Below, piece by piece: positions 9,228-29,395 of a DNA stretch of 64,000 bases. The notes under the pieces were generated by a model. The model worked only from the letters and a program-made list of their open reading frames with translations, made no database searches and was not told where the DNA came from. Position 1 is the first letter of the stretch; every line of letters begins with the position of its first letter. The DNA comes from Spirochaetae bacterium HGW-Spirochaetae-5 (lineage in GTDB: Bacteria; Spirochaetota; UBA4802; UBA5550). Both the position numbers and the translations under genes were made by a program. The DNA lies in the NCBI GenBank assembly GCA_002839285.1, contig PGXT01000001.1:6573-70572 (forward strand). Reading direction: 5' to 3'.

Positions 9228-9646
9228 GTAATCCGGATAGAGGGATGAACGTACCAGATGATTTAAAATATAGGGAGAATCATCAGTGGATAAAGATGAT
9301 TGATGACATAACCGGAATTTGCGGCATAACAGATTTTGCACAGGACAGTCTAGGCGATATAACATTTGTTGAATTTATCAATAATATAATAGGAAGCGAA
9401 AATCCCGAAGACGAAAAAATAGCAATAATAGAATCACCAAAAGATTCATTTGATGTTTACAGCATGGTATCAGGTAAAATATTAGAGATAAACAGATTAC
9501 TTGAAGATTCGCCGGAACTTCTTAATAGCGACCCTTATGGAGACGGGTGGATATTTAAAATAGAAATCGAAGACGCTATGGTTCTTGAGGATCTCCTGGA
9601 ACCTGATGAATATCTGGAAACAATTCTGCCGGATGATTTTATATAA
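9224..9646 (+). CDS. gcvH: glycine cleavage system H-protein-like lipoyl carrier
   Basis: Candidate lipoyl-lysine motif ESPKDSFDVYS and the C-terminal SDPYGDGWIFKIE motif typical of GcvH. Start overlaps the TPR gene stop (ATGA). No gcvT or gcvP adjacent. Confidence 0.7.
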   Translation: MSNPDRGMNVPDDLKYRENHQWIKMIDDITGICGITDFAQDSLGDITFVEFINNIIGSENPEDEKIAIIESPKDSFDVYSMVSGKILEINRLLEDSPELLNSDPYGDGWIFKIEIEDAMVLEDLLEPDEYLETILPDDFI

Positions 9647-9793
9647 ATCCGGTAATTAATATAACTTCCGATAAGATATATTATGTCTCTTTAGCTTTTT
9701 TCTTATGATTTACTCTGCTATTATAGCAGAATAAAGCAAGCATTTTTTTATTTTTCCCAACTCTTTTTCCACACCGCTTTTGTAACTTTTCCT

Positions 9794-9822
9794 TGACATT
9801 AAACACCATTACCCGGTATATT
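9794..9822 (+). promoter_or_regulatory. sigma70-like promoter candidate: TTGACA, 17-nt spacer, TATATT
   Basis: Hexamers read from the sequence about 180 nt upstream of the 10000..10752 ORF. The host may use a different consensus, so confidence is low. Confidence 0.2.
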
Positions 9823-9930
9823 AATTTTACTTTGCCAGAAAATCCCTAATCCCCCGACTCTAAAAAAAAGAATAAAAAACCGGATTCAAACAACACACCG
9901 GAGCAACCACCAGAAGAGGAAAAACTCCGC

Positions 9931-9942
9931 TTAAAACGGGAT
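9931..9942. repeat. 12-bp direct repeat TTAAAACGGGAT, left copy (candidate att junction of the integrated element)
   Basis: Identical 12-mer at 20457..20468, which is 85 bp upstream of the Rep gene start. The two copies bracket the co-directional gene block. Confidence 0.35.
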
Positions 9943-9999
9943 TATGTTTTTCAGGAGGATAAATTTAATTTCCCAAGTACAGAACTTGAAAACAGAATT

Positions 10000-10752
10000 A
10001 TGAAAATAGTTCATGATAACCGGGGACATTTAATCCTATTTAAAAAAGCCATCTTCTGGACAGAGGCCTGTAAAGAGGAATCTAATTACTATGACTGGAA
10101 ATCCTCCCTCCGCGCTCATAATAACATTAATGGCAAATACGATATACATCTTAATCTTAATTTAAATAAAGATGTCCCGGACATTTCAGAACTACCGGCC
10201 GGAAAGTACCGGATTGTTATATCCTTTTATAACCCCTCTAAAAGGACTAAAAACAGGCTTTACGGCTGTGTAGATACTCAGAGTATAGACTTTGTTGTCG
10301 GAAGCCCTCTAGAGCTTAAAAACGGGGGGGAGAGGGGAACGAGCAACCACTTTAACCCCTCCCCGATCTCCCAGCTTAACCAGCTGGAAGAGATCGGGAA
10401 CGTGGTCAACAAAGTCGGGGAGATTTTAAACAAGTCTCTCGATATCCACAAAAACACTATCATGTTTCAAAACGAAATAGAGAAAACAGCTTTTGAAAAA
10501 GGATACCAGGAGCGATTAAAACAGGAAGAGTCCGAGCGAACTATCAAGACTTTAACTGAACGATTGGACGCACTAGAGAGAGGGAAAGAATTAACCACCG
10601 GCGGGAATAACTCACTTGTTGAGACTCTTCTTAAAGCGGGGAAATCAATGGGGATTCTCCCGGACATAGATATTAATAACATCACGCCGGAGCAGATTGT
10701 TTCTATCCTTTCCAAATTTCAGGCGCCAGCTACACCGCCCGCGGGGGAATAA
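10000..10752 (+). CDS. hypothetical protein (250 aa) with a coiled-coil C-terminal half; the only plus-strand gene inside the putative element
   Basis: ORF with a C-terminal heptad-like region (QERLKQEESERTIKTLTERLDALERGKE). No recognisable motif. Confidence 0.4.
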   Translation: MKIVHDNRGHLILFKKAIFWTEACKEESNYYDWKSSLRAHNNINGKYDIHLNLNLNKDVPDISELPAGKYRIVISFYNPSKRTKNRLYGCVDTQSIDFVVGSPLELKNGGERGTSNHFNPSPISQLNQLEEIGNVVNKVGEILNKSLDIHKNTIMFQNEIEKTAFEKGYQERLKQEESERTIKTLTERLDALERGKELTTGGNNSLVETLLKAGKSMGILPDIDINNITPEQIVSILSKFQAPATPPAGE

Positions 10753-11078
10753 TTATGCATGTTAATTGGTTAATCAATTTTTTAAATTATAGAGTCCAAA
10801 GAGACTGCACTTATTTTAATAAAGCTGGTGTATTCTTCAGAGATAAAAATGATAAGATAATAAAAATTTCGTCTATTGAATCAAATGAAAATAATGATAT
10901 TATTTTGACGGAGGATTAAGAGTGGAAAACAAAGAAATCAATATTTTAATCCAAAATTTAAGAAAAGTTTTAACCGAACAGGAATTAAAAATAGATGATA
11001 CAACAACAGATCTATCTTTCAATTACAAAGTTTTTATACAAAAAACTCTTCAATCTCTTCAATATATAAGATAAATTT

Positions 11079-11112
11079 TACCGCATAACGCCAGATACGG
11101 CGTTATGCGGTA
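11079..11112. repeat. perfect palindrome TACCGCATAACGCC-AGATAC-GGCGTTATGCGGTA (14-bp arms, 6-nt centre)
   Basis: Read directly from the sequence. Lies just beyond the late-operon terminator near the left end of the element. Contains CATAA/TTATG half-sites. Confidence 0.5.
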
Positions 11113-11132
11113 AAAAACACCTTCAAAAAAAC

Positions 11133-11166
11133 GAAAAAAAAGCCCCGGTCATTAATACCGGGGCTT
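11133..11166 (-). terminator. rho-independent terminator for the minus-strand late operon (AGCCCCGGT-loop-ACCGGGGCT plus T8 on the minus strand)
   Basis: GC hairpin preceded on the plus strand by an A-run (a T-run on the minus strand), immediately downstream of the last late gene (11234). Confidence 0.6.
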
Positions 11167-11233
11167 TGAAAAATCAATTCATCAAGAATTGATTTTTTTG
11201 CTTTCCGGAGGCTTCGCGTGGATCTATTTTCCG

Positions 11234-11656
11234 TCACCCGCCGACACTTTTAAAGACTTTATAAATAAATAGTAAAACGATTATTATTATGATTAAAACC
11301 CCGATATTAAATATTTTATCAAGGGAGCTTTCTTTCTCAGGCTCTGCACGGCTTTTAATAGTCAATAACGACTTGTTAACCGCGTCCAGTGCTGCACTCT
11401 TCTTAAATTTTACATCGTCACTGTCACCGGGAACGACACTTAAAACACCGCTTTTAATGACCTGTTTTAAGTCCTTTATGACTTCTTTATCCGGGGAAAA
11501 ATCCTTCTGGATAGTACCGCACCCGATTGATAAAAAAATACAGATCAATATAACCACATAAGCCACACCGAGAAAAGCCCCGATAAGAGCTTTAATGTTT
11601 CTCTTTATAAATGACAACACTCTTCCCCCCTGAATTTTTAAGCAGCATAAAGGCAA
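11234..11656 (-). CDS. u-spanin-like lysis protein (N-terminal signal peptide with lipobox, C-terminal TM anchor)
   Basis: Signal-like hydrophobic segment ending in the lipobox-like SIGC, a soluble middle, and a C-terminal TM helix IGVLIIIIIVLLFIY. Last gene of the lysis cassette. The true start may lie inside the track ORF, since it overlaps the upstream gene by 64 nt. Confidence 0.4.
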   Translation of the reverse strand: MPLCCLKIQGGRVLSFIKRNIKALIGAFLGVAYVVILICIFLSIGCGTIQKDFSPDKEVIKDLKQVIKSGVLSVVPGDSDDVKFKKSAALDAVNKSLLTIKSRAEPEKESSLDKIFNIGVLIIIIIVLLFIYKVFKSVGG

Positions 11657-12299
11657 GCAACGCCCCGCCGATTAAATATATTTTATCAATACCCGGCTTT
11701 ATAATTTCGTTGTAAAACTCTTTAGCCTCTGCATTCAATTTCTGTCCGGCTTTTTTCGAAGCTATAAACGGATTATTAAGAGATATATATAAAGATGCCA
11801 TTAAAGCAGGCTTTTTAAATACTTCATACCAGATCAAAATATTATTTACAATCGGAGCAACGGGGATAATTGCAATTTCATAATCAGCAGCATCAATTGA
11901 CTTTTCAGGTAAAAAAATTCCCCCGTGTTTTTTTAAGACCTCGATACCTTCCAGCCCCTCTTCTCTTAAATCAAAATGAATATGTCTGTTAAAGCTGGAT
12001 AGATAAACAGTATTAGCATAAGCCCTCAACTCATTAAAAAGCCATACATTCATGTACAGAGGATAGACCGTGATATCAATAGCTTTCCCGCCTGAGTGAT
12101 TCGCGTTCCTTTTTGTCCGGTCTTGTGAGGTTACGATAATATCAGTGACATTCTCGTAAAAATATGATTTTTTTTTTGCATCATTGAATATGTCGGCCAG
12201 TAAGGTATATAAACCATGACCGGCATCATTTAAGCGAGACCCGTTTTTAAAATTCGGAGTCTGGAAGATGAAAAAATCTTTATCATACTTTATTGACAT
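11592..12299 (-). CDS. peptidase M15 (VanY / L-alanoyl-D-glutamate peptidase-like) endolysin candidate with C-terminal TM segment
   Basis: Zinc-ligand motifs HSGGKAIDI (H-x6-D) and HIHFD (H-x-H) characteristic of M15 peptidases. C-terminal hydrophobic helix IYLIGGALLAFMLL. Confidence 0.65.
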   Translation of the reverse strand: MSIKYDKDFFIFQTPNFKNGSRLNDAGHGLYTLLADIFNDAKKKSYFYENVTDIIVTSQDRTKRNANHSGGKAIDITVYPLYMNVWLFNELRAYANTVYLSSFNRHIHFDLREEGLEGIEVLKKHGGIFLPEKSIDAADYEIAIIPVAPIVNNILIWYEVFKKPALMASLYISLNNPFIASKKAGQKLNAEAKEFYNEIIKPGIDKIYLIGGALLAFMLLKNSGGKSVVIYKEKH

Positions 12300-12756
12300 T
12301 TTCTATTAACCACTTCGCCGGGTCTGTGTGTTTGTTGTTTATCATAACTTCAAAGTGTAAATGCTCCCCCATGGAAAAGCCATAATTTCCAATAGTGCCG
12401 ACCTTCCCCCCTTCAAGTATTATGTCGCCTACGGAGAGACCTTTTAACGGGGCTATATGCTTAAATACGAAAGTTACATCAGGATTATCGGAGCTGTGAG
12501 CGATAACATACGGAGTCCAGGCACGCCCCAGAGGGACAGTATTATCAATTTCAAACTTACCCCTGACAAGCTTAAATCTGCAAGGGTATTCACTGTCAAC
12601 GTCAAGGATTCTATCGACTGTCATATCGCACGGAGCAATAGCCGTTTTATTTTTACCTGTGAAATCAATTCCATAATGAAAAACAGGTTTTCTCCCCGGC
12701 AGTGTTCGCATCCCGTACGGGGAAGTTATTTTTTTGTTGTCAACCGGATATCTCAT
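12283..12756 (-). CDS. peptidase M23 (LytM-type) peptidoglycan endopeptidase
   Basis: M23 motifs HYGIDF (H-x3-D) and GEHLHFEV (H-x-H). 157 aa, single domain. Confidence 0.8.
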   Translation of the reverse strand: MRYPVDNKKITSPYGMRTLPGRKPVFHYGIDFTGKNKTAIAPCDMTVDRILDVDSEYPCRFKLVRGKFEIDNTVPLGRAWTPYVIAHSSDNPDVTFVFKHIAPLKGLSVGDIILEGGKVGTIGNYGFSMGEHLHFEVMINNKHTDPAKWLIENVNKV

Positions 12757-13010
12757 ATCTCATCAACCTTTATTTCTTCGGCTTCCAGTGCTGCCAGTTC
12801 ATCAAGTTTATATTGTATTGCCTGAGCGCATAGATCAGGGATAGATTTTAAAACTCTGAATCTCTCAATATTTTGAGGTGAATATATATCCGATTCACGG
12901 AGAACCAGAAAGTCACCATTTGCAAGCTGTAAGACAAAACAGGTTATATCCGTTTTATCTTCGGTTAATTCAATATCAATTATTGTTGTATCGTAAAATA
13001 GAATATTCAT
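12753..13010 (-). CDS. hypothetical protein (85 aa)
   Basis: ORF packed tightly between neighbouring genes with 4-nt overlaps on both sides. No recognisable motif. Confidence 0.35.
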   Translation of the reverse strand: MNILFYDTTIIDIELTEDKTDITCFVLQLANGDFLVLRESDIYSPQNIERFRVLKSIPDLCAQAIQYKLDELAALEAEEIKVDEI

Positions 13011-13976
13011 TTAAACCACCCTTTGGAAAATAAAAGAAAAGGGGGCTACACTTGAATTTCTTCCTCTACAATACCATGTCCCAGAAAGAGCCACCCCATT
13101 ATCATACTGAAAATTATATTCATATATATTATCTGTTGAATACTTTACTATAAAACTTTGATTTCTTGCTACATCGCCATTCATCATGTTAGCAATATCT
13201 CTAGCTGAAATAATAGAGCCGATAGGGAAATTTATATTAGAATTGACTGAACCAGTATAAACTTTATTTTCTTTTAAAAACCCTGCTGCAACTGCTGACG
13301 CATCTTTTAAAAAGCCCTCAGTTTCTGCAGATGCTTCTTTCAGAAAGCCGAGAGCAATTAAAGCAGCTTCATCTAAACCGGCAGAGGATTTAAAAAAAAA
13401 ACCGGATAGATTGAAGTTGAATATATATTGCAGTTTGCAGAAATCCTTTGCATTCATCAAATTTACAGTACCGGAAGCAGTGACAAGAAAATAAATTGAA
13501 ACATCACTGGAGACAATCCCCTTTGCTGTCTTGATTGCTGCAAGGTCAAGAGCAATAGACTTTTTTGCGTAATCCTGAGAGAGGTTTAAATTCTCCCCCT
13601 CTGCCGTGTCCTGATAGAATGATTCTGAGAGTTTGAAAAGTCCCGCGCTTATAAAGTCAGCTTCTGCGAGATTCTCATCACATGAAGTAAAAGCATTAAA
13701 AACAGTGTCCGCACCTATCCAAGCAGAGATTTTAATATCTCCCTTAAATCTGCTTATAACCTGATTAATGTAATCAGATTCAACCACCGTCAAGAAATTG
13801 TTTAATGATACTTCAAGCCCTGTTAGTTCAGTGACTTTCAATCTGCAAGCCATAACCTTTTTCGGGATATTCGCAAAATTATTTTTGCCGGATAGATTAA
13901 AGTCTAAACCCTGCATATTAAAATTAAATCCCGTTAATGTCTTAAAGTTCTGAAAGTCCTGAATTATAACAGCCAC
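13011..13976 (-). CDS. hypothetical structural protein candidate (321 aa; spike or major capsid candidate)
   Basis: Largest late-operon protein. Beta-rich N- and C-terminal regions and an internal triple repeat GFLKEASA / GFLKDASA / GFLKENK. No enzymatic motif. Confidence 0.4.
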   Translation of the reverse strand: MAVIIQDFQNFKTLTGFNFNMQGLDFNLSGKNNFANIPKKVMACRLKVTELTGLEVSLNNFLTVVESDYINQVISRFKGDIKISAWIGADTVFNAFTSCDENLAEADFISAGLFKLSESFYQDTAEGENLNLSQDYAKKSIALDLAAIKTAKGIVSSDVSIYFLVTASGTVNLMNAKDFCKLQYIFNFNLSGFFFKSSAGLDEAALIALGFLKEASAETEGFLKDASAVAAGFLKENKVYTGSVNSNINFPIGSIISARDIANMMNGDVARNQSFIVKYSTDNIYEYNFQYDNGVALSGTWYCRGRNSSVAPFSFIFQRVV

Positions 13977-14002
13977 TTGACCCGCCCCAAATTTTTATTT
14001 AT

Positions 14003-14344
14003 TTATACAAGCAGCTCAAAAACCAGAACCGCTACAATATCCGAGCTGTGCGAATTATTAAATTCATAATTATACTTTGCGCCCGGCTCCCCGAGTTTTA
14101 CCTTTTCGGGGAAAAGGTCTGTTAAAAGCTCAACCCCGATATTATCAAAAACCTTTTCACTTGTTGTACTGTTAAGCATTGTCATGTTTAATTTTCCCCT
14201 TAAACTTGACAGATCTGTGAGACAAACAACCTCACCTATTACGGGGTTTTTTCCCCTGATAAGCTGGTCAAGATCAAAAGTTCCAGCCAAGCCGGTTGAA
14301 CCGGCTGGAACGGTAATTGAAACTTGTGAATATTTCTTACCCAT
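14003..14344 (-). CDS. hypothetical protein (113 aa)
   Basis: ORF in the late operon. No recognisable motif. Confidence 0.35.
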   Translation of the reverse strand: MGKKYSQVSITVPAGSTGLAGTFDLDQLIRGKNPVIGEVVCLTDLSSLRGKLNMTMLNSTTSEKVFDNIGVELLTDLFPEKVKLGEPGAKYNYEFNNSHSSDIVAVLVFELLV

Positions 14345-14368
14345 AATTTAAACCCTATATCCCTTAAA

Positions 14369-14917
14369 TTATGCTATCTGCTGGGGCTTGTAAAGAATCC
14401 CTTTCATTACAACAACCAGCTCCGCATTTGCTTCAAGGATTGGAAGATTCACATTGAAATCAAAGTTTTCATCTTCTATCCATTCTCCGCCATCTATAAA
14501 AAGAGGCTGGAACGCTCTTACCGGCTGGGGCTGTGATGTACTTGTCGCCACCGTTACCGCTGAGTCAAAAAACTCTGCAAGGGAACCGCCCGCGATCTCT
14601 CTATCTGCAATAGATAGCTGAAAGTTACCGAGAGTGAGCTTCGAAAGGATTGCCGGGGTAACTGCTGCACCTGTTGAAAGCTTGTAAATAAATCCGACTT
14701 TCTGAACGTTGAAAATCTGATCTACCGGGAAGCGGGGACCCTGATTTTTCCAGTTTGTTTTACTACCTTTTGAGCCGAATTTCCCATCCATTTCAAGAAA
14801 CGCTTTTGCATCTACAACGGGGGTTGACGCATTACCGTCAATGGTATAATAAAAGGATTTTCCTATCCCGTCCATCAACTTTGAATCACCTTTTTTATTT
14901 GTTACTTTTCTTAACAT
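14369..14917 (-). CDS. hypothetical protein (182 aa), beta-rich; candidate jelly-roll capsid protein
   Basis: ORF in the late operon with alternating hydrophobic beta-strand-like composition. Fold is not verifiable from sequence alone. Confidence 0.35.
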   Translation of the reverse strand: MLRKVTNKKGDSKLMDGIGKSFYYTIDGNASTPVVDAKAFLEMDGKFGSKGSKTNWKNQGPRFPVDQIFNVQKVGFIYKLSTGAAVTPAILSKLTLGNFQLSIADREIAGGSLAEFFDSAVTVATSTSQPQPVRAFQPLFIDGGEWIEDENFDFNVNLPILEANAELVVVMKGILYKPQQIA

Positions 14918-14957
14918 TTGAATAACTCCGAATTTTTTATTTTAAAGTTTTAAGGTA

Positions 14958-15428
14958 TTAAAACCTTGTTACATCAGTTTCAACCGCTGCACGGTTTACA
15001 CCATTTCCCGCCGGGGGAATATATGAAGCCTGCTTTGTCTGTCCGTTTGGCATCTTAACCGGAACAGATACACCGCTTACCGCATTCATAGAACCGGAAC
15101 CGCCGAGCGCGTTAATGTATGTAATCAGAGTCGCTTTTTTCTTCGGGTCAGTCTCTTTCCCTGCAATCTCTGTTAATATGTCGCGAATCATCGCCACACC
15201 ACCGACCGCCATACCACCGACCGCCAGAAACTCCGCGACCTTCTTATCTTTTACAAGAAGACTTGCCAGAACCGCCGGAGCTACCATTGTCAAAAGGTTT
15301 GACAGATATTTATTGCTGATTCTTCCAGCAAGTAAAAACTGGACAATAACCGGAGCAAATGCGCCGACTGCCTTGTCTTTATCTGCAAAATTTTTAACGC
15401 TACCCATTAAATCTAATTTTTTAGCCAT
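14958..15428 (-). CDS. membrane-associated protein (156 aa; Ala/Gly/Val-rich hydrophobic segments)
   Basis: Three hydrophobic stretches (AFAPVIVQFLLAG, LLTMVAPAVLASLLV, FLAVGGMAVGGVAMI). ORF in the late operon. Confidence 0.4.
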   Translation of the reverse strand: MAKKLDLMGSVKNFADKDKAVGAFAPVIVQFLLAGRISNKYLSNLLTMVAPAVLASLLVKDKKVAEFLAVGGMAVGGVAMIRDILTEIAGKETDPKKKATLITYINALGGSGSMNAVSGVSVPVKMPNGQTKQASYIPPAGNGVNRAAVETDVTRF

Positions 15429-15431
15429 CGT

Positions 15432-16076
15432 TTATTTCCTCTTCTTTTTATTGCTTAATAACAAAACCCCGGCAGTTAAACCGCCGATAATTAACAGCGG
15501 ATTCATACCGGAGTTTTTCTTATTATCGTTTTCAATTTCAATTTCAATTTCATCATTGTATATTGTTTCTTTCTCTTCAGGCGGTAAAACCGGAGTAATA
15601 GGCTGCACCTGATAAATATTTGCCTCTGCGCTCTGTGTTGTTTTATAATTATAAATTATACCGATAAGACTATCAGTTCTAAATTTATATATTGCCTGTA
15701 AAATCTGAAGAACTCCATTTCTACTGAAAGCCGTTTCGCCCTGGTCTGTCTTTGTCTTCATAATCTCAGTTATGAAACTTTCTGAATTTTCCGGGGTTAC
15801 TGAATACCCTCTTAAGATTGATTCTTTCAGGTATGATAATATTATATGCTGCGCGTACCACCATGATACAACCGTGACGCCGTTTCTCTTAAGTAAATAC
15901 TGAACATGGCTTGTAAGCGCGAACAGAACCGCCATTGACGCCGTTTTTGTTTTTCCGTCTGACAGTCCGAAAGTAAGAACTTTACTAACTGCAAGTTTCG
16001 AATTAAAATCCGGGTCATTATTTGAAAACCAGTTTCTGAGACTGGTAATATCTATATATTTTCTATCAATTGTCAT
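15432..16076 (-). CDS. C-terminally membrane-anchored protein with a degenerate P-loop-like motif (214 aa)
   Basis: GLSDGKTKT resembles Walker A but is one residue short. C-terminal TM helix LLIIGGLTAGVLLL followed by KKKRK. Size is in the range of the small packaging ATPases of membrane-containing phages, but ATPase activity is not supported by motif alone. Confidence 0.4.
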   Translation of the reverse strand: MTIDRKYIDITSLRNWFSNNDPDFNSKLAVSKVLTFGLSDGKTKTASMAVLFALTSHVQYLLKRNGVTVVSWWYAQHIILSYLKESILRGYSVTPENSESFITEIMKTKTDQGETAFSRNGVLQILQAIYKFRTDSLIGIIYNYKTTQSAEANIYQVQPITPVLPPEEKETIYNDEIEIEIENDNKKNSGMNPLLIIGGLTAGVLLLSNKKKRK

Positions 16077-16080
16077 AATC

Positions 16081-16602
16081 TTAATACCATCCCAGAAACG
16101 CGAAATACTGATTAATCATTGCCTTAATATCATCAACAACCGCCATTCCCTGCTCTGGGATATCCCCGGCGTATAACTCATAATAAGCCTTTGCCGTTTC
16201 TATTACTGCCATAGTGGAAATATAAACATTCTTTCCGCTTGAATACATATCCCCAACAAGAGGCGCATCTTCTGCCAGCTTATCCAGTGCCGACAATAAA
16301 GGAGCGGAAGCATCGACAAAGGCTTTTATTCCTGTGTCTGCGTAAACGTCAGATACTGTCTCTTTTATGTCGCTGTATTGTTCCTGTACGCTCTGCGCTG
16401 CATCGACTGTCAACTCTACGGCGTTTTGAACCATGTCCATAATCTCTGACTGATAAGCAGCGGACGCCACATCCTGAACAGTTTCAACTGCATTCTGTGC
16501 AACATCAACAGCACTCTGGACGGCGCCAGTAACAGCAGAAACAGCATTTGTAATAATTCGCGGGGGACTCCAACCCCAGCCGACAACATCACTTTGTTTC
16601 AT
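16081..16602 (-). CDS. hypothetical Ala/Val/Gln-rich protein (173 aa)
   Basis: Repetitive S/AVxxAVQxAV segments. No TM or enzymatic motif. Confidence 0.35.
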   Translation of the reverse strand: MKQSDVVGWGWSPPRIITNAVSAVTGAVQSAVDVAQNAVETVQDVASAAYQSEIMDMVQNAVELTVDAAQSVQEQYSDIKETVSDVYADTGIKAFVDASAPLLSALDKLAEDAPLVGDMYSSGKNVYISTMAVIETAKAYYELYAGDIPEQGMAVVDDIKAMINQYFAFLGWY

Positions 16603-16604
16603 CT

Positions 16605-16799
16605 TTAACAGTGACCTTTTTCCCTATGTGATAAAGTCGAGGAAGCTTTAATGCAAATTTCAAACTCAAAGAGATTTGAGAAAAAAACTTTACAGTGACG
16701 GAAAAAGTCAGCAGTATGTATCTTATGACAATTTCTTTTATTGTCTCTGTTTTGTTTTCGCTCATCCTTAACCCCTTTTAAATTTTGCAATTTCTTCAT
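16605..16799 (-). CDS. small hypothetical ORF (64 aa), doubtful
   Basis: Fills a 165-nt gap between neighbouring genes. Basic, no motif. Confidence 0.15.
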   Translation of the reverse strand: MKKLQNLKGVKDERKQNRDNKRNCHKIHTADFFRHCKVFFSNLFEFEICIKASSTLSHREKGHC

Positions 16800-17169
16800 C
16801 AGGAAACCTTTCCCCCAGCTTTAAAAAATCATAACTATTATCATAGTCTATGAATTTTGAACCGTCCCACACTCTACAAAAAACATGATAACGGTTTACA
16901 TCTGTTCTTAAGTACACCACTTCAAAATCAATTTCATTCTGCATTAAGTAGATCATTGTGACTTTTGTTTTTTCGCCACAATCCCCACCATATCTGATTA
17001 TGTCGCTTGGGTCTCTGGAAACATCTTCGAAAACCTGCTCTTTAAATATGACTCCCTGCGACATAAAATTAAAAAAGTCTGTTAAGCTCTTTTCGATCAA
17101 AAAGGCGGGGAGCTTTTGAAAACCCGCAAAGAAAAACAGCTGATCTGTATAATGCTGAAAACTGAACAT
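16768..17169 (-). CDS. transglutaminase-like/papain-fold cysteine peptidase candidate (133 aa)
   Basis: GDCGEKT followed downstream by YHVF and D residues, compatible with a Cys-His-Asp transglutaminase-like core. Weak, motif-level only. Confidence 0.3.
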   Translation of the reverse strand: MFSFQHYTDQLFFFAGFQKLPAFLIEKSLTDFFNFMSQGVIFKEQVFEDVSRDPSDIIRYGGDCGEKTKVTMIYLMQNEIDFEVVYLRTDVNRYHVFCRVWDGSKFIDYDNSYDFLKLGERFPDEEIAKFKRG

Positions 17170-17175
17170 AGACTT

Positions 17176-17337
17176 TATCTGTACTTTTTAATCATTGTTT
17201 CTTTTTTCTTTTTGTCCGAATCAATTTCATTACAGCGTTTATTCCAGTCTTTTAAACGCTCTTCAAACTTTTTCCATGATTCAAGGCTTGCGCTTGCCTT
17301 TGGTTTTTTTGGTCTTTTAGGTTTTTTAATAGCCATT
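17176..17337 (-). CDS. small highly basic protein (53 aa; MAIKKPKRPKKPK...), candidate DNA-binding or genome-condensing protein
   Basis: ORF translated by hand from the minus strand; absent from the track because it is shorter than 60 aa. About 35 percent Lys/Arg. Confidence 0.3.
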
Positions 17338-17563
17338 ACTTACCCGCCTTTTTTATAATCATAATCAAAGGAATTGAGAGAATGACAAGTTTAACCGGAA
17401 CAAAACCGAATATCTTATATTCGTAAAGTGCTTTAACTGCGTCCGGTAAAACTCCCTGCTCTTTAAATTCCTTAACTAATTCTTTTTCGTCTAAAAACAA
17501 ACTCATTCTTTGACCTGTTGTATTTTTGATACATGTATCAATTATACAACAATTTGTCAACAA
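17336..17563 (-). CDS. small membrane protein (C-terminal TM; probable start at the internal Met giving about 56 aa)
   Basis: C-terminal helix LVILSIPLIMII. First gene after the internal terminator. Confidence 0.3.
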   Translation of the reverse strand: MLTNCCIIDTCIKNTTGQRMSLFLDEKELVKEFKEQGVLPDAVKALYEYKIFGFVPVKLVILSIPLIMIIKKAGK

Positions 17564-17598
17564 AAAAACCGCCTTTTTAGGGGCGGTTTTAAAAAAAG
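17561..17598 (-). terminator. rho-independent (bidirectional-looking) terminator separating the early and late transcription units of the element
   Basis: AAAACCGCC-loop-GGCGGTTTT hairpin flanked by an A-run and a T-run, immediately downstream of the lipoprotein gene. Confidence 0.6.
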
Positions 17599-17633
17599 TT
17601 GTATTTTATTAAATTATAAAATAATTAGTTAAT

Positions 17634-17957
17634 TTACTTCTTTTCGAGTGTGTAAGTTTTTTCCGCTGGATAATCCATCCACCAGAGGTAGGAAAAAATA
17701 TGAATTATATTAAATTCACTCTTTTGTAAATTGGTCTGAAAGTCTTTATACTCATCTTTCTGAAGTTTGACCTCTGTTGACATCCACAAAGGCTTACTGT
17801 CAGTGTGAGCATATGGAGTCACGCCTTTAAGCTCCCCATCAATAAAAATTTTAGCTTCGCCGGGGACACTCTGAATTTTTACAGTGCTTGAACAACCGAC
17901 CGCAAAGATTAAAAGACTTAATACAACCGCGAACATCTTAAATTTTTTCATGTGCAT
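17634..17957 (-). CDS. lipoprotein (107 aa)
   Basis: Signal peptide with lipobox AVGC (MKKFKMFAVVLSLLIFAVGCSS). Confidence 0.5.
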   Translation of the reverse strand: MHMKKFKMFAVVLSLLIFAVGCSSTVKIQSVPGEAKIFIDGELKGVTPYAHTDSKPLWMSTEVKLQKDEYKDFQTNLQKSEFNIIHIFSYLWWMDYPAEKTYTLEKK

Positions 17958-18005
17958 AACCTCTCTTTTATTTGATATAAAAATTAATTTATATGCTCTT
18001 TTTTG

Positions 18006-18215
18006 TCAATGTAAAATCTTTTTCTGCTTCTTAATATAGGCATAAGCTTTTAAGGCTATCCGGCCTATGACTTCAATATTTTTTTTCCGTTCCTGCTGCT
18101 TCCATTTTTTTATATTGTTAAGGTCACGACCTAGAATAAAACCAAACACAGCAGACACCATACAGACCAATAAAAATAATAAATTAAACATCACTCCCCG
18201 CCTGCATGAAATCAA
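18006..18215 (-). CDS. small single-TM protein with basic C-terminus (holin-like or virion membrane protein candidate)
   Basis: TM helix FNLLFLLVCMVSAVFGFILG followed by a Lys-rich tail. Confidence 0.3.
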   Translation of the reverse strand: MISCRRGVMFNLLFLLVCMVSAVFGFILGRDLNNIKKWKQQERKKNIEVIGRIALKAYAYIKKQKKILH

Positions 18216-18402
18216 ACTCCATGCTCTTAATGTCTTTAGAGTCTATATTACTTTTAATTTTCTTAAGTAATACCCGGCTTAATTTATGCAGTGCTTCAGC
18301 TTCTTTTTTTATTGCTTCAGCTGCTCCCGGATTCATTTTTAAAAGTCCAAAGGACTCCATCATATTTTTCTGAGTGCTTAAAAAATCGTTTTTAACTGAC
18401 AT
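18184..18402 (-). CDS. hypothetical protein (72 aa)
   Basis: ORF in the early unit. No motif. Confidence 0.3.
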   Translation of the reverse strand: MSVKNDFLSTQKNMMESFGLLKMNPGAAEAIKKEAEALHKLSRVLLKKIKSNIDSKDIKSMEFDFMQAGSDV

Positions 18403-18403
18403 A

Positions 18404-19018
18404 TTAGTTCCCCCATTGTTCTGCCATTGCTTTAGATATACCAGGCGGGAAGAGACTTCTTTCTTTCCCTTTCCCTTTCCCTAATTTACCGAATTTAGAA
18501 TATTTACTTAATCCCGATTTTGTTTTTTTAGAATTATAAAATAGATATTCCGGTATAACTTCTGAAGAGGGAAATAACCCCCCCTCCGGAAACCAGTTTA
18601 AAAACGGTAAATTTTTAAGCCATAAACAAGTCTTCTTTGAATAATTATCTCCGAAAAAATAAGGCTGTATAATTTGATCAGGTTTTTTAAATTTTGTACT
18701 CAGAACACCGACCGGATTTTCAATTGCAATTTTAGGGATATTACAATCCCATAATTTTTTTACAAAAGAAATAGCTTCTTTTTGCTGTTCTATTTTGTTT
18801 TTAAAATGTGCTGCCCCTGAAACTGCTAAATGAGTACACGGAGGAAACGCGATCATCATATCCCATTTATCATTTATTATATCCATGACATCGCCCTGGT
18901 AATGTAAACCAGGCTTTTCTGTTGGTAATAAATCACATGATAAAACATAATGACCAAGTTTTTTAAATTCATCTCTGACGGCTCCGGAATATTCACATGC
19001 AACCAGTATCCGCATCAA
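18404..19018 (-). CDS. miniature DNA (cytosine-5)-methyltransferase-like protein (204 aa) with a divergent motif I and almost no target-recognition domain
   Basis: Collinear C5-MTase motifs: motif I variant ILVACEYSGAVRDEF in place of LFxGxGG; motif IV FPPCTHLAVSGA (PC catalytic dipeptide); motif VI IAIENPVGVL (ENV); motif VIII-like YSKKTCLWL; C-terminal QWGN (motif X-like, compare QFGNSV). Confidence 0.5.
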   Translation of the reverse strand: MMRILVACEYSGAVRDEFKKLGHYVLSCDLLPTEKPGLHYQGDVMDIINDKWDMMIAFPPCTHLAVSGAAHFKNKIEQQKEAISFVKKLWDCNIPKIAIENPVGVLSTKFKKPDQIIQPYFFGDNYSKKTCLWLKNLPFLNWFPEGGLFPSSEVIPEYLFYNSKKTKSGLSKYSKFGKLGKGKGKERSLFPPGISKAMAEQWGN

Positions 19019-19290
19019 GCCCCCCTCTGAACGTCAATGTCTTTTGTCAGTGTGTTATATATTTCTCTAATCTCCGCGGGCGTCTTTACAGCTTTATTTT
19101 CAACGTGTAAAGCACTGTCATTTTTTAACATTCCTTCCCCTTCAACGTCTATAAAATCTATACCGTCAAATTTTGAGACAGTAAACTGAAAAGGAATTTC
19201 ATCAATCCGCTTTTTCTCTACGCCTTTTTTTATTAAATATACTTGTATCGCTATTTCAAATTCTTTAACAGTCCCTATAAAACAGATCAT
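19015..19290 (-). CDS. hypothetical protein (91 aa)
   Basis: ORF between the Rep and MTase-like genes with 4-nt overlaps at both ends. Confidence 0.35.
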   Translation of the reverse strand: MICFIGTVKEFEIAIQVYLIKKGVEKKRIDEIPFQFTVSKFDGIDFIDVEGEGMLKNDSALHVENKAVKTPAEIREIYNTLTKDIDVQRGA

Positions 19291-20372
19291 TATTTTTTAT
19301 CCTCCGGTTTTTTATATAATTCGACGTCTTGAATATCCGCGCCGTTGTATTGGTTTCCCCTGAAAAGTTGATTTTTAACGCCGTCCGACAGTACCCGGAA
19401 GCTCTTGACGACATCAGAGTCGTCAAGCTCCGGGAATCGGAAGGTTTTAACAGCTTCATAGCTCCAGAAATGTGTTAGTTCCCGTTTATGTTTAAGCAAG
19501 TGTGCTTCTTCTATAACAAGGGAGAAGAAGCACCGATCTCGACAATCCCCGCAAAATCCATCGTAACCGCTCGGACAGTCGACAGGGCTTGTTTGCACTT
19601 CCCCGACAACCCCCCGAGTCCTTCCACTGGAATATCCTCTGGATGCTCTAAACGCTTTTTTGTTGTGTTTGATAAGTGAATATAAACCGATTATTTTTTT
19701 AAGTTCTTCATCGGTAAGAGCTGCTCCGGCCTTCGCTTTTTGATAAATTGCCTTAACCCCGTTGAAACCTTTGGCCACATATTTAAAAATGTAATAGCTT
19801 GCCCGTGTACTGTAGCAAGCCTCTACACTGGTTATATGTTTCCATTTGCTGTTAATACGGTCTTTTAATTCAGGGTCTGCAATCTCTGCGAATGGCTTTG
19901 TCTTTTTTGTGTATTTGTTATATCTTCTACGCATAACAAATTTAACGGGGTTTTTGAGAGTGATTAAAATGTGAGCATGTGCAACGCCTTTTTTCGTTGC
20001 TTCAAGCGTAACAATATAATCGGTCATCTCGATATAACTGTCACGCCTGAGAGCATCAAAAAAATATTTTGAATCTTTCCCGAATTGCTCCCAGCTCTCA
20101 AAAGTGTCGGGATAAGTCAAGACAACATGAATTAAATTTGACATTGAGTTCTCAGTGTCAATATTTGTTTTAGCTTCAAGCATCTTTTCAATCTTCCAGA
20201 CTCGACCAGATACCCGGCTATCATGTGCAACATTACCCCGGCGCGGAGCAAGCCCGACAAATTCATTATTAAATTCTATGTAAAACTCCTTTTTGTAATG
20301 GAGATCAAAGAAATTAATGACTTCATAATCGAGATAATTTGTTGCTTTTTTTGCTTGACTTCTATCGCTCAA
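19290..20372 (-). CDS. rolling-circle replication initiator, HUH endonuclease superfamily I (phiX174 gpA / Microviridae VP4 / PM2 P12-like), with C-terminal Cys cluster
   Basis: Motif 1 VVLTYPDT, motif 2 HAHILITL (HUH), motif 3 YYIFKYVAKG (two catalytic Tyr spaced as in phiX174 YVAKYVNK). C-terminal CPSGYDGFCGDCRDRC resembles a zinc ribbon. Confidence 0.8.
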   Translation of the reverse strand: MSDRSQAKKATNYLDYEVINFFDLHYKKEFYIEFNNEFVGLAPRRGNVAHDSRVSGRVWKIEKMLEAKTNIDTENSMSNLIHVVLTYPDTFESWEQFGKDSKYFFDALRRDSYIEMTDYIVTLEATKKGVAHAHILITLKNPVKFVMRRRYNKYTKKTKPFAEIADPELKDRINSKWKHITSVEACYSTRASYYIFKYVAKGFNGVKAIYQKAKAGAALTDEELKKIIGLYSLIKHNKKAFRASRGYSSGRTRGVVGEVQTSPVDCPSGYDGFCGDCRDRCFFSLVIEEAHLLKHKRELTHFWSYEAVKTFRFPELDDSDVVKSFRVLSDGVKNQLFRGNQYNGADIQDVELYKKPEDKK

Positions 20373-20456
20373 TTCGGTAGTTTCCTTTTAATTGAATACA
20401 ACAAACCCGCCCCAAATAACGGGTTTTGTTTTCGGTAATTATTAAGAAATGACATT

Positions 20457-20468
20457 TTAAAACGGGAT
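20457..20468. repeat. 12-bp direct repeat TTAAAACGGGAT, right copy
   Basis: Identical to 9931..9942. Sits 85 bp upstream of the Rep start codon. Confidence 0.35.
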
Positions 20469-20485
20469 ATTCTCCCGCTTTTTTT

Positions 20486-20689
20486 TTATTTTGGTAATTT
20501 ACTTACGATGTCAGTCCATTTGATTTTACATTCTTCTCTCGTACCGGAGATAAAAACCTGCTGAACTATCCCCTCTAGTTGAATTGTAAAAAATGAACCA
20601 GTGTTGTCTTTTTTGTCTGTGATTGCAGACATAAAAATGATTTTAGCGGGATTGAAAACCCCATTTTCAGTGACTATAAGATTTGACAT
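20486..20689 (-). CDS. hypothetical small protein (67 aa)
   Basis: ORF between the element and ispF. No motif. Confidence 0.25.
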   Translation of the reverse strand: MSNLIVTENGVFNPAKIIFMSAITDKKDNTGSFFTIQLEGIVQQVFISGTREECKIKWTDIVSKLPK

Positions 20690-20845
20690 TTGAGACCTCT
20701 TTTTATTTTTTTTATTTTAACCTCTCGGAAGAGTGGTTAATCTTTTTTATTTTGCCGGGAGAGTTTTACTACCTCCCCCGGCAAGTTTGCCCTTTTCCCA
20801 CTGTACACGCCCCCCAGCCTGCACAGTGATAAAGGGGCAAGCCCT

Positions 20846-21019
20846 TTATTTTATTTCCTGAAGGTAATTATGAATGCTACGGATTTTTGCGTCACAGTTT
20901 AAATAAATTTCATCATTTCCAGGATTAAGAGTTGAGCAGGCTTTCAGCTCATCAATTACGACCTGTAATGATTTTTCTATTTTTTCGATCTGCTTGATAA
21001 CGTCGGAGGTGTTTGACAT
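20846..21019 (-). CDS. small protein (57 aa, MSNTSDVIKQIEKIEKSLQVVIDELKACSTLNPGNDEIYLNCDAKIRSIHNYLQEIK) downstream of ispF
   Basis: Hand-translated ORF; under 60 aa so missing from the track. Good AGGAG Shine-Dalgarno 6 nt upstream of the ATG. Confidence 0.35.
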   Translation of the reverse strand: MSNTSDVIKQIEKIEKSLQVVIDELKACSTLNPGNDEIYLNCDAKIRSIHNYLQEIK

Positions 21020-21107
21020 GGTAAACTCCTTTTAATATTAAAATTAATTTGCTTAATATTTAATAGAAAAAAGCTATTAGAATAAGATATATTATGTCTC
21101 CGCTGTA

Positions 21108-21614
21108 TTAGTTAAGACACAGAGCAGGATCAAAATAAAGAAGTGAAACAGTGTAGACAGCTATCCCCTCACCACGGCCGGTGAATCCGAGTTTTTCAGT
21201 AGTTTTACCTTTAATACCGATAGCAGCCGGTAAGAGTAAGCCATCCATTGCATCAGATATACTCTTTTTCATTTCAGTTATGTACGGGGAGATTTTAGGA
21301 TTATCACATATTACAACTGAATCGGTATTTATAACAGAAAAACCGTTGTTTATAAGTTTTTTATGAACCTCTTTTAAAAGCATCAGACTGCTGATATCTT
21401 TATATGCAGGATCGGTGTCGGGAAATAATTGTCCGATATCACCGATATTGGCAGGACTTAAAAAAGAATCTATAATTGAATGAACTAGAACATCCGCATC
21501 GGAGTGCCCCTGGAGACCCAGATGATGATCGATTTTTACTCCACCCAGAATAAGATCACGTCCATGAACCAGTGCATGAACATCAAATCCGTTTCCTATC
21601 CTGTAGTTTATCAT
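21108..21614 (-). CDS. ispF: 2-C-methyl-D-erythritol 2,4-cyclodiphosphate synthase
   Basis: Conserved GNGFDVHAL and HSDADVLVHS motifs. 168 aa. Confidence 0.9.
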   Translation of the reverse strand: MINYRIGNGFDVHALVHGRDLILGGVKIDHHLGLQGHSDADVLVHSIIDSFLSPANIGDIGQLFPDTDPAYKDISSLMLLKEVHKKLINNGFSVINTDSVVICDNPKISPYITEMKKSISDAMDGLLLPAAIGIKGKTTEKLGFTGRGEGIAVYTVSLLYFDPALCLN

Positions 21615-22077: not shown

Positions 22078-23307
22078 TCAATGAGAAAAATCTATATCTA
22101 TCAAAATCATTCTGGGATAAACTTTACCAAGATATTCGTTGTTTTCAAGTTTAAAAATCATATCCAGATTTTTTTTTGTTTTATAGAATATACTCATTTT
22201 TTCGAACATATTCCATCCTATCGCCTGAATATTTCCGTTTAACTGATACTTGCCATGAGCTCCTGAGCTTCCGAAAGTATTAAAACTCTCAATTTTAACA
22301 TTTTTTACAGCGAAAACAGGTTCTTCATTACTTTTCCCGAAAGGTTCAAGTATAAATATACTCTTTATAAAATTTGAGCTGATATCATTTATTTCGATAA
22401 CAGAGTCCACATGAATTGTCATTTCAGGAATAAAATCATCTGAAATGGCGTTATTTATTACGGAGGCTATCTGGTTAATTCTGCCAATTTCAGCGGTAAA
22501 ACCGAATGCCTGGGCATGTCCCCCTACTCTTTCAAACAAATGAGAAGCGCCGGCAGTATACTTGAAAAAATCGAAATTCCCGGAACTCCTGGCCGAACCT
22601 TTCACTATTCCGTTTTTGTCAGAACCGGTAGCAATTATAACCGGTTTTTTTATATCATCGGCAATACGGTTTGCAATCAACCCGGCTAGACCATCAATAA
22701 TCTCTTCATGCATATAGAAAAAAATATTATCATTAATTATCGCCCTGGAATAATCCTCACTGATCTTTTCAATGATATCATTAACCATTTTTTTTCTATC
22801 TTCATTTATCTTCTGTATTGAATTAACTATCTCAGCGGTCCTGTCTGCACTATCTTCAAGGAAAAAATCAACAGTCATACCGGATTCACCCATACGGCCC
22901 GGAGCATTTAAAAGCGGAGCGATGTTCCAGCTGATATATTTAGAAGTCGCCTTATTTTTCCCTGTTAATGATAAAATCCCCCTGTGGCCCCTGCCGTTAT
23001 TTATCATGGAAAGGCCATACTTTACCAGCTGTCTGTTCTCGCCATGAAGGGGCATAATATCTGCAATGGTACCGATGGTAACAAGTACAACATACTCCTG
23101 AAGTACTGCCATGATTTTCGATGAACTTCTGAGCTGAAGTTCTATAAATAATTTTAAATAAAGTTTAAACTCACTTTTAGAATTATACGCATTTATTCTG
23201 AATTCCCTAGAAAGAATATCCAGCATGGTTTTGTTATTTTCAAAATTTTTATCAGAAACAGATTCCGCAATTTTTTTAAAATCTGTTATAACTATTCCAT
23301 TATGCAT
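22078..23307 (-). CDS. recJ: single-stranded-DNA exonuclease RecJ, C-terminal portion (DHHA1 domain), in a different frame from the N-terminal portion
   Basis: GGHAQAFGF (the GGGH motif of DHHA1). This frame stays open upstream as far as 23382, overlapping the end of the N-terminal ORF. Confidence 0.65.
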   Translation of the reverse strand: MHNGIVITDFKKIAESVSDKNFENNKTMLDILSREFRINAYNSKSEFKLYLKLFIELQLRSSSKIMAVLQEYVVLVTIGTIADIMPLHGENRQLVKYGLSMINNGRGHRGILSLTGKNKATSKYISWNIAPLLNAPGRMGESGMTVDFFLEDSADRTAEIVNSIQKINEDRKKMVNDIIEKISEDYSRAIINDNIFFYMHEEIIDGLAGLIANRIADDIKKPVIIATGSDKNGIVKGSARSSGNFDFFKYTAGASHLFERVGGHAQAFGFTAEIGRINQIASVINNAISDDFIPEMTIHVDSVIEINDISSNFIKSIFILEPFGKSNEEPVFAVKNVKIESFNTFGSSGAHGKYQLNGNIQAIGWNMFEKMSIFYKTKKNLDMIFKLENNEYLGKVYPRMILIDIDFSH

Positions 23308-23366
23308 AGATTTAATTATTGACGCAAGGGTAAGACTCTCGCTGTTAAGCAGAACAATATAATCAG

Positions 23367-28498: not shown

Positions 28499-29395
28499 CT
28501 ATCCTTTAGGATGAAAATTTTTGTGAATTTTCTGAAGCTGTTTTTTAGCCATATGAGTATATATCTGAGTTGTTGAGATATCCATGTGGCCAAGCAGTTC
28601 CTGGACAGAACGGAGATCAGCTCCATTTTCTATCAGGTGCGTTGCAAATGAGTGCCTTAAAGTATGAGGCGTAATATTCTTTTTAATTTCAGTTCTTGTA
28701 ACATAATTTTTCAACAGACGCCAGACAGACTTTCTATTCAACTGAGACCCTTTTTTACTTACAAATAAAAACTCCGAATCTCTGCTGCCGATTATTGCCG
28801 GCCTTGATTCCTTTTTATATTTCAACAAAAGTCTAGCTGCTTCTTTACCTATCGGCACCATTCTCTGCTTATTACCTTTACCAATTACAGTTACGAATAG
28901 ATTATCAAAATCAACATCTCCGGAATTTAGATCTATTGCTTCTGAAATTCTCAAACCGCTGGAATATAATAACTCAAAAATGGTTTTATCACGAAGCTCA
29001 TAACTGTCCTCTTCTGATATCGAATTAAACAGCTTATTTAATTCATTAACAGTAAGAAAATCCGGCAAAGTTTTTTCTACATGAGGAGTTTCGATTTTCT
29101 CTGTGGGATTTTTAATATTAGTATCAACATTATCTGAAACAAAATTATAAAACTGTCTTATTGCAGCAAGAGATCTTGCCAGAGTTCTTGTTGAGTTTTT
29201 TTTATCATTTTTTTCATACTTTAAAAACTGCTGAATATCCTCATGTGTGGCATCAAGGATATCCTTACTTTTATTTGATAGAAATTCACTGAATTTTTTT
29301 AAATCATAGGTGTATGAATAAATGGAATTCTGGGACAACCCCTTTTCAACCTGAAGAAACTTTTTAAATCTTTTAATTGCCACTACTTCTTTCAC
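28499..29395 (-). CDS. tyrosine site-specific recombinase XerC/XerD-like
   Basis: C-terminal catalytic region LRHSFATHLIENGADLRSVQELLGHMDISTTQIYTHM (R..H-x-x-R..Y). 298 aa. Confidence 0.8.
   Translation of the reverse strand: MKEVVAIKRFKKFLQVEKGLSQNSIYSYTYDLKKFSEFLSNKSKDILDATHEDIQQFLKYEKNDKKNSTRTLARSLAAIRQFYNFVSDNVDTNIKNPTEKIETPHVEKTLPDFLTVNELNKLFNSISEEDSYELRDKTIFELLYSSGLRISEAIDLNSGDVDFDNLFVTVIGKGNKQRMVPIGKEAARLLLKYKKESRPAIIGSRDSEFLFVSKKGSQLNRKSVWRLLKNYVTRTEIKKNITPHTLRHSFATHLIENGADLRSVQELLGHMDISTTQIYTHMAKKQLQKIHKNFHPKG

Follow-up and report, generated by a model that had tools for sequence, protein, structure and literature searches.

We analyzed a stretch of 64,000 nucleotides (the window) from Spirochaetae bacterium HGW-Spirochaetae-5 (GenBank assembly GCA_002839285.1, contig PGXT01000001.1, positions 6,573 to 70,572), in which a block of genes lies between the core genes gcvH (9224-9646, plus strand) and ispF (21108-21614, minus strand). 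An original prediction, made from the letters of the window, had described this block as a foreign, virus-like integrated element of about 10.5 kb (9931-20468) with a rolling-circle replication initiator (Rep) and a lysis cassette. Its foreign origin is borne out by three related genomes (L002, L003, and L004) in which the site is empty: only about 125 bp separate gcvH from ispF, and the element's genes are all absent from the locus. Comparison loci of this type (L002 to L005) are from Spirochaetota metagenome-assembled genomes (MAGs) retrieved in a gcvH-anchored scan of species-representative genomes. The limits of the block had been drawn too narrowly. Both ends are marked by a 19-bp direct repeat (ATAAGATATATTATGTCTC) with identical copies at 9671-9689 and 21082-21100 (two matches of the repeat in 0 of 100 shuffles), giving an element of 11,411 bp (9690-21100; 11.4 kb) that includes two further genes, g67 and g57, upstream of Rep. 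Contrary to what had been proposed, the genes are not all codirectional, as p250, p54, and p50 (10000-11074) lie on the plus strand and p250 is conserved in relatives. All features are listed in Table 1.

The repeat falls inside a 28-bp host dif site, ACTTCCGATAA-GATATA-TTATGTCTCAT, which is kept in loci L001 to L005, including the empty sites, and even in L005 despite a gcvH identity of only 52%; the site is occupied in only some genomes. This 28-mer is also closely similar to the dif of Bacillus subtilis. In the window and L001 to L005 (six loci), GC skew flips at the site from positive on the left to negative on the right, and the flanking genes converge on dif, as expected at a replication terminus. 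The left end of the element (attL) consists of the host XerC-side arm, the center, and a XerD-side arm, and the right end (attR) is a pseudo-dif. No integrase family matched the element's open reading frames (ORFs; Pfam was scanned with 26, PHROGs with 20 of these, and NCBIfam with 9 of these). The original prediction had reported the missing integrase and overlooked the reason for it: the element is inserted at dif, very likely by host Xer recombinases. A host xerD lies only about 7.4 kb from dif, and L014, a relative described below, is arranged likewise.

By its defining sequence features, the element is an IMEX, a mobile integrative element that makes use of Xer: it is inserted in dif at the terminus, it has dif and dif-like flanks, a circular relative has an attP, and it carries no recombinase of its own. 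Very likely, then, it is mobile DNA that sits at dif and relies on host Xer, and XerC/XerD of the host would catalyze both integration and excision. TLCφ and the GGI also lack an integrase, and their insertion leaves a dif and a degenerate dif (PMC5357621). In their attP the XerD-side arm is divergent, whereas in the window element, whose attP would read TATTAGAATAA GATATA TTATGTCTCTT, the XerC-side arm is divergent and the center and XerD arm are intact; the relatives L023 and L001 show the TLCφ-like polarity. A CTXφ-type hairpin attP was rejected, as no inverted second dif-like site was found within the element at up to 8 mismatches.

Elements of the same kind were present in other contigs. 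At the gcvH/ispF dif, just as in the window, L014 (a JGI contig) carries an element with identical gene order and the same dif/pseudo-dif layout, and related elements in L023 and L026/L027 also lie between a dif and a pseudo-dif; in all, dif-located relatives that share the gene order occur in three metagenomic or MAG contigs (L014, L023, and L026). A 7.6-kb fragment, L016, ends in a dif-like site. The 9,297-nucleotide contig L018 has a 30-nucleotide terminal overlap and so corresponds to a circular genome of about 9.27 kb. It retains the late, lysis, and p250-like modules, and its one dif-like site (ACTGACAATAC GATATA TTATGTCACAT) sits precisely at the junction of the early genes with the p250-like gene. 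This dif-like attP is thus located where the prophage ends lie in integrated copies.

The conserved core comprises g67, Rep, g91, g75, g53, g133, g173, g214, g156, g182, g113, the N-terminal ~220 amino acids (aa) of g321, the M23 peptidase, g235, g140, and the opposite-strand p250, and the gene order of the virion/lysis module is kept in at least six contigs. Relatives with the full gene set are only 35 to 75% identical, and dN/dS values of 0.09 to 0.38 between the window and L014 indicate that the genes are under selection. The replication modules differ by member (PF23343 Reps, a PF05144 Rep in L023, and none of the HUH type in L018, where a 151-aa winged-helix protein [L018:2873-3328; weak HTH_36 match] heads the early genes), a pattern that points to their exchange within the family. 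Searches yielded only 4 Rep homologues among 5.8 billion sequences and 11 clusters (50% identity) of the g182 family among 1.84 billion representatives, and a further word-indexed search, for which the g182 family profile served as query, brought no new members. The family is very rare in public data.

The candidate major capsid protein is g182. Its AlphaFold2 model, built on a 12-sequence alignment, is all-beta (pLDDT, 78.9; pTM, 0.74); with a 3-sequence alignment pLDDT was 36, and a good model was obtained only once distant homologues were added. Foldseek searches of PDB and BFVD returned mostly circovirus and satellite-virus capsids (E values of ~1e-5 to 1e-3; TM scores of 0.3 to 0.5). The structural-match figure of the model was 7.9 for the capsid protein (CP) of Satellite panicum mosaic virus, 7.8 for SPV1 VP4, 7.3 for P23-77 VP17, 7.2 for both STIV major capsid protein (MCP) and PRD1 P3, 6.3 for FLiP MCP, and 6.1 for both ΦCjT23 P5 and HCIV-1 VP7. 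These scores are moderate, and the matches also include noncapsid jelly rolls. The protein is thus predicted to have a jelly-roll fold that is nearest to capsid proteins, and at 182 aa the modeled fold is a single, not a double, jelly roll. The hydropathy scan gave it neither a signal peptide nor a transmembrane segment. The original prediction had named the 182-aa protein as a possible jelly-roll capsid protein, which the predicted fold supports, and had proposed comparing it with double-jelly-roll capsid proteins, whereas its size is that of a single jelly roll.

Two neighboring genes may complete the particle. By its sequence pattern, g113 appears beta-rich, and it is a candidate for the penton or for a second capsid protein. 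L014, L016, L018, and L023 all conserve the N-terminal part of g321, and the C terminus of the window copy matches the C termini of tail proteins (phrog_21249 and phrog_24121), in place of which the homologues of L014, L023, and L026 have a Pfam Collar domain; such a pattern would be expected for a vertex spike with an exchangeable receptor-binding domain. Comparisons by hhalign gave no relationship of g182 to g113, g321, p250, or the 238-aa protein of L001. Neither g182, g321, and Rep (tblastn; for g182 and g321 even at E = 10 and E = 1) nor the whole element (megablast) matched any of 50,697 GenBank phage records; IMG/VR scans with g182 and Rep gave no match, and PDB sequence searches with g182, g321, and g235 gave nothing useful.

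As predicted, no ORF matched a terminase, portal, or large capsid protein in the family scans (Pfam, PHROGs, and NCBIfam), and a packaging ATPase is missing as well: no P-loop motif occurs in any ORF of at least 60 aa across six elements. The original prediction of more than six small transmembrane proteins or lipoproteins agrees with the hydropathy scan, which gave clear transmembrane- or signal-like segments in g140, g156, g214, g75, g107, and g69, with g235 as a weak seventh case. The positional counterpart of g173 in L018 has 332 aa and a transmembrane anchor at its end. Its invariant Cys-His-Asp makes g133 a candidate transglutaminase-like or papain-like peptidase; Pfam and NCBIfam gave no profile match, nor did PDB with a g133-family profile. 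The 53-aa protein is as basic as predicted and is a candidate DNA-condensing protein.

Both the M23 endolysin and the two intrinsic terminators of the original prediction were found (Table 1). For its M15 endolysin, g235, an H-x6-D...H-x-H motif is conserved (H68, D75, H106, H108, and D110 are invariant in 5 homologues), and a profile match in Pfam, NCBIfam, or PDB did not emerge. The predicted u-spanin, g140, has a full-length homologue in L014 (49%) and the expected topology, on which the call rests; we regard it as a candidate u-spanin or holin. At the opposite end of the element, p250 has homologues that agree with it in terminal position and orientation in L014 (60%), L026 (43%), L023, and the circular L018, no domain match in Pfam, PHROGs, or NCBIfam, and a candidate role as a lysogeny or Xer-accessory factor. 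Counterparts of p54 and p50 were not detected in relatives, and the two are possibly variable cargo.

The prediction of a rolling-circle Rep holds, though not that of a PM2-like type. The protein matches PF23343 (REP_ORF2-G2P; 1.4e-7, 32.1 bits versus a gathering score of 27.8), and the Rep of L023 matches PF05144; by these matches Rep belongs to the G2P-type Pfam family of inoviruses and plectroviruses. The window Rep is 100% identical to a database protein of Spirochaetae bacterium HGW-Spirochaetae-5. The hairpins in the g67-Rep spacer are a candidate terminator and/or origin. The predicted methyltransferase (g204) is confirmed by its PHROG match at 8e-64. No homologue of g204 or of g107 was found in L014 or L016, and both appear to be accessory additions to the early region, with possible roles in, for example, superinfection exclusion or antirestriction.

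Table 1. Features of the element and the host xerD, with positions in the window
Feature	Position	Strand	Description	Evidence or remark
attL	9664..9691	+	Near-perfect 28-bp dif, ACTTCCGATAA GATATA TTATGTCTCTT	27/28 match to 28-mer of L001-L005; contains repeat 9671-9689
Promoter	9793..9822	+	Sigma-70-like, TTGACA-18-TATATT, upstream of p250	11/12, best in region; consensus match only
p250	10000..10752	+	Conserved terminal gene, strand opposite to main block	
p54 and p50	10755..11074	+	Two small ORFs (54 and 50 aa) downstream of p250	No family matches
Terminators	11167-11139 / 11115-11076	-	Two strong hairpin terminators closing late operon, convergent with p250 unit	18-pair and 11-pair stems, then T runs
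g140	11234..11656	-	Two-transmembrane protein	Lipobox-like N-terminal signal, C-terminal transmembrane segment; transmembrane-like segments 19-53 and 109-140
g235	11592..12299	-	LAS-type (M15-like) metallopeptidase motif and C-terminal membrane anchor	
g157	12283..12756	-	M23 peptidase, endolysin	PF01551 at 1.2e-10; phrog_3578 endolysin at 4.3e-32
g85	12753..13010	-	Small acidic protein	No matches in family scans
g321	13011..13976	-	Putative spike/receptor-binding protein	Conserved N-terminal domain (~1-220) and variable C-terminal domain
g113	14003..14344	-	Small conserved protein adjoining capsid gene	Syntenic homologues in all relatives
g182	14369..14917	-	Predicted single jelly roll, candidate major capsid protein	
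g156	14958..15428	-	Conserved polytopic membrane protein, 3 transmembrane-like segments	
g214	15432..16076	-	Conserved, C-terminal transmembrane anchor and basic tail	
g173	16081..16602	-	Acidic, helical and repeat-rich look (sequence)	
g58	16589..16765	-	Small basic ORF	Weak match in L014
g133	16768..17169	-	Conserved, invariant Cys-His-Asp	C64, H95, and D110 invariant in 5 homologues
g53	17175..17336	-	Very basic small protein, 53 aa	pI 10.2; conserved in L014, L016, and L026
g75	17336..17563	-	Small, C-terminal transmembrane segment and basic tail	
Hairpin	17565..17590	-	Intrinsic-terminator-like, early/late block boundary	Hairpin scan
g107	17634..17957	-	Lipoprotein-like, PEGA domain	PF08308 at 8.8e-6; signal-like segment
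g69 and g72	18006..18402	-	Small early ORFs (g69 transmembrane)	ORF list; hydropathy
g204	18404..19018	-	Phage-type DNA methyltransferase, PC and ENV motifs	phrog_757 at 8.3e-64
g91	19015..19290	-	Conserved small acidic protein downstream of Rep	77% identical in L014
Rep	19290..20372	-	HUH rolling-circle initiator, HAHILI and YIFKY motifs	PF23343; phrog_3419; motifs
Hairpins	20403..20477	.	Two conserved hairpins, g67-Rep spacer	Stem retained by different sequence in L016
g67	20486..20689	-	Conserved small protein upstream of Rep	67% identical in L014, 48% in L016
g57	20846..21019	-	Small terminal ORF adjoining attR	57-aa ORF at same place in L014
attR	21075..21102	+	Pseudo-dif, TATTAGAATAA GATATA TTATGTCTCCG	Center and XerD-arm core intact; XerC-side arm divergent
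xerD	28502..29395	-	Host XerD recombinase, trans-acting, outside element	TIGR02225 at 359.7 bits, cutoff 329.6

The affinity to FLiP or PM2 that the original prediction had favored found no support in detectable homology, as hhalign of six family profiles and Rep against all FLiP and nine PM2 proteins gave probabilities below 3%. Among known systems, ΦCjT23 and FLiP come closest in lifestyle and gene logic. Both are lipid-containing phages with single-stranded DNA (ssDNA), a Rep, and no ATPase; ΦCjT23-like prophages are 6 to 8.4 kb, lack an integrase, and are flanked by 28-bp dif motifs implying XerC/XerD integration (PMC9719478, PMC7654751). The present group shares with them a small genome (7.6 to 9.2 kb in theirs and 9.3 to 11.4 kb here), a rolling-circle Rep, the lack of a packaging ATPase, a cell-wall-degrading enzyme, a spike with a conserved N-terminal domain, and integrase-less, dif-flanked prophages. 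It differs in its capsid candidate (182 aa, versus double jelly rolls, with 239 aa in the solved P5 chain of ΦCjT23 and 310 aa in the chain of FLiP), in its host phylum (Spirochaetota, versus Bacteroidota), and in the M23 and LAS peptidases and spanin-like gene that the window element adds. From FLiP it is further set apart by a lack of any protein sequence or profile similarity and by a Rep that is unrelated beyond the HUH motif. Membership in Finnlakeviridae was rejected, as the defining feature tested was not found.

The dif-type double-jelly-roll prophages of Vibrio (NO16, 'Asemoviridae') are tailless and temperate, measure about 10.6 kb, and integrate at dif through XerCD, and as in the window element the transcription of a terminal gene by attP runs counter to that of the lysis genes (PMC9966536, PMC12715192). 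Their capsid protein is a double jelly roll, and they have a packaging ATPase and lysogeny genes like RstR/XafT, whereas our element has no ATPase and a relation of p250 to XafT was undetected (no Pfam match). Membrane viruses with two single-jelly-roll (SJR) capsid proteins (P23-77, HCIV-1/SH1, and SPV1) are mostly of double-stranded DNA (dsDNA), with genomes of 16 to 30 kb and an FtsK/HerA-type ATPase; this Helvetiavirae-like trait is absent here, where no P-loop was found. Some microviruses integrate at dif (PMC3091885), and the element shares with Microviridae the lack of a packaging ATPase, a small basic protein, and an HUH Rep of the two-tyrosine type (YxxxY); it differs in having a genome of twice the size, with genes for many membrane proteins and for endolysins.

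Three further assignments were rejected. Microviridae would call for an F/VP1-type capsid protein (420 to 560 aa) and a microvirus Rep family match, neither of which was found, and for 4 to 7 kb rather than 11.4 kb. For Corticoviridae, which are defined by a P2-type double-jelly-roll MCP and a P9 packaging ATPase, ORFs of at least 60 aa had no P-loop and hhalign probabilities were below 1% against all PM2 proteins. For Inoviridae/Plectroviridae, there was neither a P-loop nor a Zot Pfam match and hence no pI/Zot-like ATPase; the G2P-type Rep of these families is present (PF23343, and PF05144 in L023). The original prediction had likewise judged Microviridae and Inoviridae to be misfits, and of the two options it left, a FLiP/PM2-like virus or an undescribed group, the latter is the better one.

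We consider it likely that the element is a functional provirus of a small temperate tailless phage, from an undescribed group, in the chromosomal dif of the uncultured spirochaete HGW-Spirochaetae-5; the group is probably a new family. In the cycle that we propose, a double-stranded circular form would recombine with dif by means of the host's XerC/XerD. Once the element has been excised or induced, the HUH Rep would nick an origin, probably in the g67-Rep spacer, and so drive rolling-circle replication. The late operon would then supply the particles, built of the jelly-roll protein g182 and perhaps also of g113, with g321 as the spike on the vertices, where exchange of its C-terminal domain among relatives would change receptor specificity. 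An internal lipid membrane would probably be formed by g75, g156, g214, and the anchored LAS peptidase g235, and release would be by lysis through the M23 endolysin, the LAS peptidase, and the two-transmembrane protein g140. As for the packaged genome, we lean slightly toward ssDNA coupled to rolling-circle synthesis, by analogy with FLiP and ΦCjT23, over the dsDNA alternative, because the element has no packaging ATPase but a small, very basic protein (g53). The strand base composition of the element does not discriminate between the two.

Several points weigh against this provirus interpretation. Neither particles nor an excised circle or ssDNA of the element have been seen. No HUH Rep is recognizable in the circular relative L018, which weakens the case for ssDNA. 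The half-sites are labeled XerC and XerD by analogy with Escherichia coli and B. subtilis, and the putative internal lipid membrane is deduced only from hydrophobic segments.

The missing packaging ATPase, the lack of a major capsid gene recognizable by sequence, and the great rarity of the family (11 clusters in 1.84 billion representatives) could also mean that we are looking at a defective prophage remnant or at a satellite that relies on a helper phage for its capsid or packaging. We find this unlikely: all ORFs are intact and tightly packed, purifying selection has kept the full gene set in relatives that are 35 to 75% identical, the complete circular 9.27-kb relative has the same module, and the element has a jelly-roll protein, a spike, and lysis genes of its own. 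A nonviral, Xer-exploiting island or an integrated rolling-circle plasmid with envelope-related cargo would account for the dif flanks, the HUH Rep, and the lack of an integrase, and most of the proteins have no assigned function. The Rep, however, has no match in 72,556 PLSDB plasmid records, a capsid-like fold, a spike of the tail-collar/fiber type, and an endolysin are present, and a fixed module order with swapped replication genes is typical of viruses, which makes this origin quite improbable.

We hold it to be very improbable that the provirus belongs to a filamentous (inovirus- or plectrovirus-like) phage extruded without lysis, although the Reps fall into the G2P families PF23343 and PF05144, XerCD/dif integration is typical of inoviruses (PMC7307601, PMC12715192), and g75 and similar small proteins, with their transmembrane segment and basic tail, look like the coat proteins of inoviruses. 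A Zot/pI-like P-loop ATPase is encoded by 0 of 6 elements, g182 would be a soluble, capsid-like jelly roll with neither signal peptide nor transmembrane segment, and M23 and LAS peptidases occur together with a spanin- or holin-like protein.

A more specific form of the tailless-phage provirus interpretation is possible but rather doubtful. The element would then be the first of a new family-level lineage with an icosahedral, membrane-lined SJR shell (g182 with or without g113) and a 9- to 11-kb genome packaged without an ATPase, residing as a Xer-dependent provirus in a spirochaete dif. If such a shell exists, the group would be a bacterial, probably ssDNA, counterpart of the archaeal/thermophilic two-SJR viruses, and it would represent, in living form, a stage believed to have come before the double-jelly-roll capsid.

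Small tailless phages that integrate at dif are already known, and the element is a new variant among these. Novel is its combination of an SJR-size capsid protein with an inovirus-type Rep, Xer-dependent lysogeny, and the lack of a packaging ATPase. Next to nothing is known of tailless spirochaete phages, and the dif-site lysogeny of tailless phages seen in Flavobacterium and Vibrio now extends to a third phylum. The group escapes sequence-based virus finders, its capsid and spike candidates and Rep being unmatched in GenBank phages and its capsid candidate and Rep in IMG/VR. It offers a system for studying the origin of the double-jelly-roll capsid and motor-free DNA packaging.

In the chromosome of a related spirochaete (L001; OW818666.1), the same dif site holds an unrelated 6.4-kb element (L001:10487-16926), showing that a single dif locus can house unrelated Rep elements. 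It encodes an HUH/YxxxY Rep of 358 aa (weak PF23343 match), a 224-aa membrane-anchored LAS-motif peptidase, an Arg-rich 78-aa protein, and a 238-aa protein, and it has no PHROG matches. The polarity of its attP is opposite to that of the window element, with a perfect XerC arm and a divergent XerD arm. In the L023 element, a ~19-nucleotide motif (TAWAAACTTGCGAGGGTTT) recurs in 6 copies just upstream of genes (L023:5112-10613) and may be a shared ribosome-binding or regulatory signal. Beside the element, recJ (window 22078-24047) is seemingly split into ORFs of 409 and 226 aa, versus one 687-aa gene in L014, which may reflect a frameshift, a pseudogene, or a MAG assembly error.

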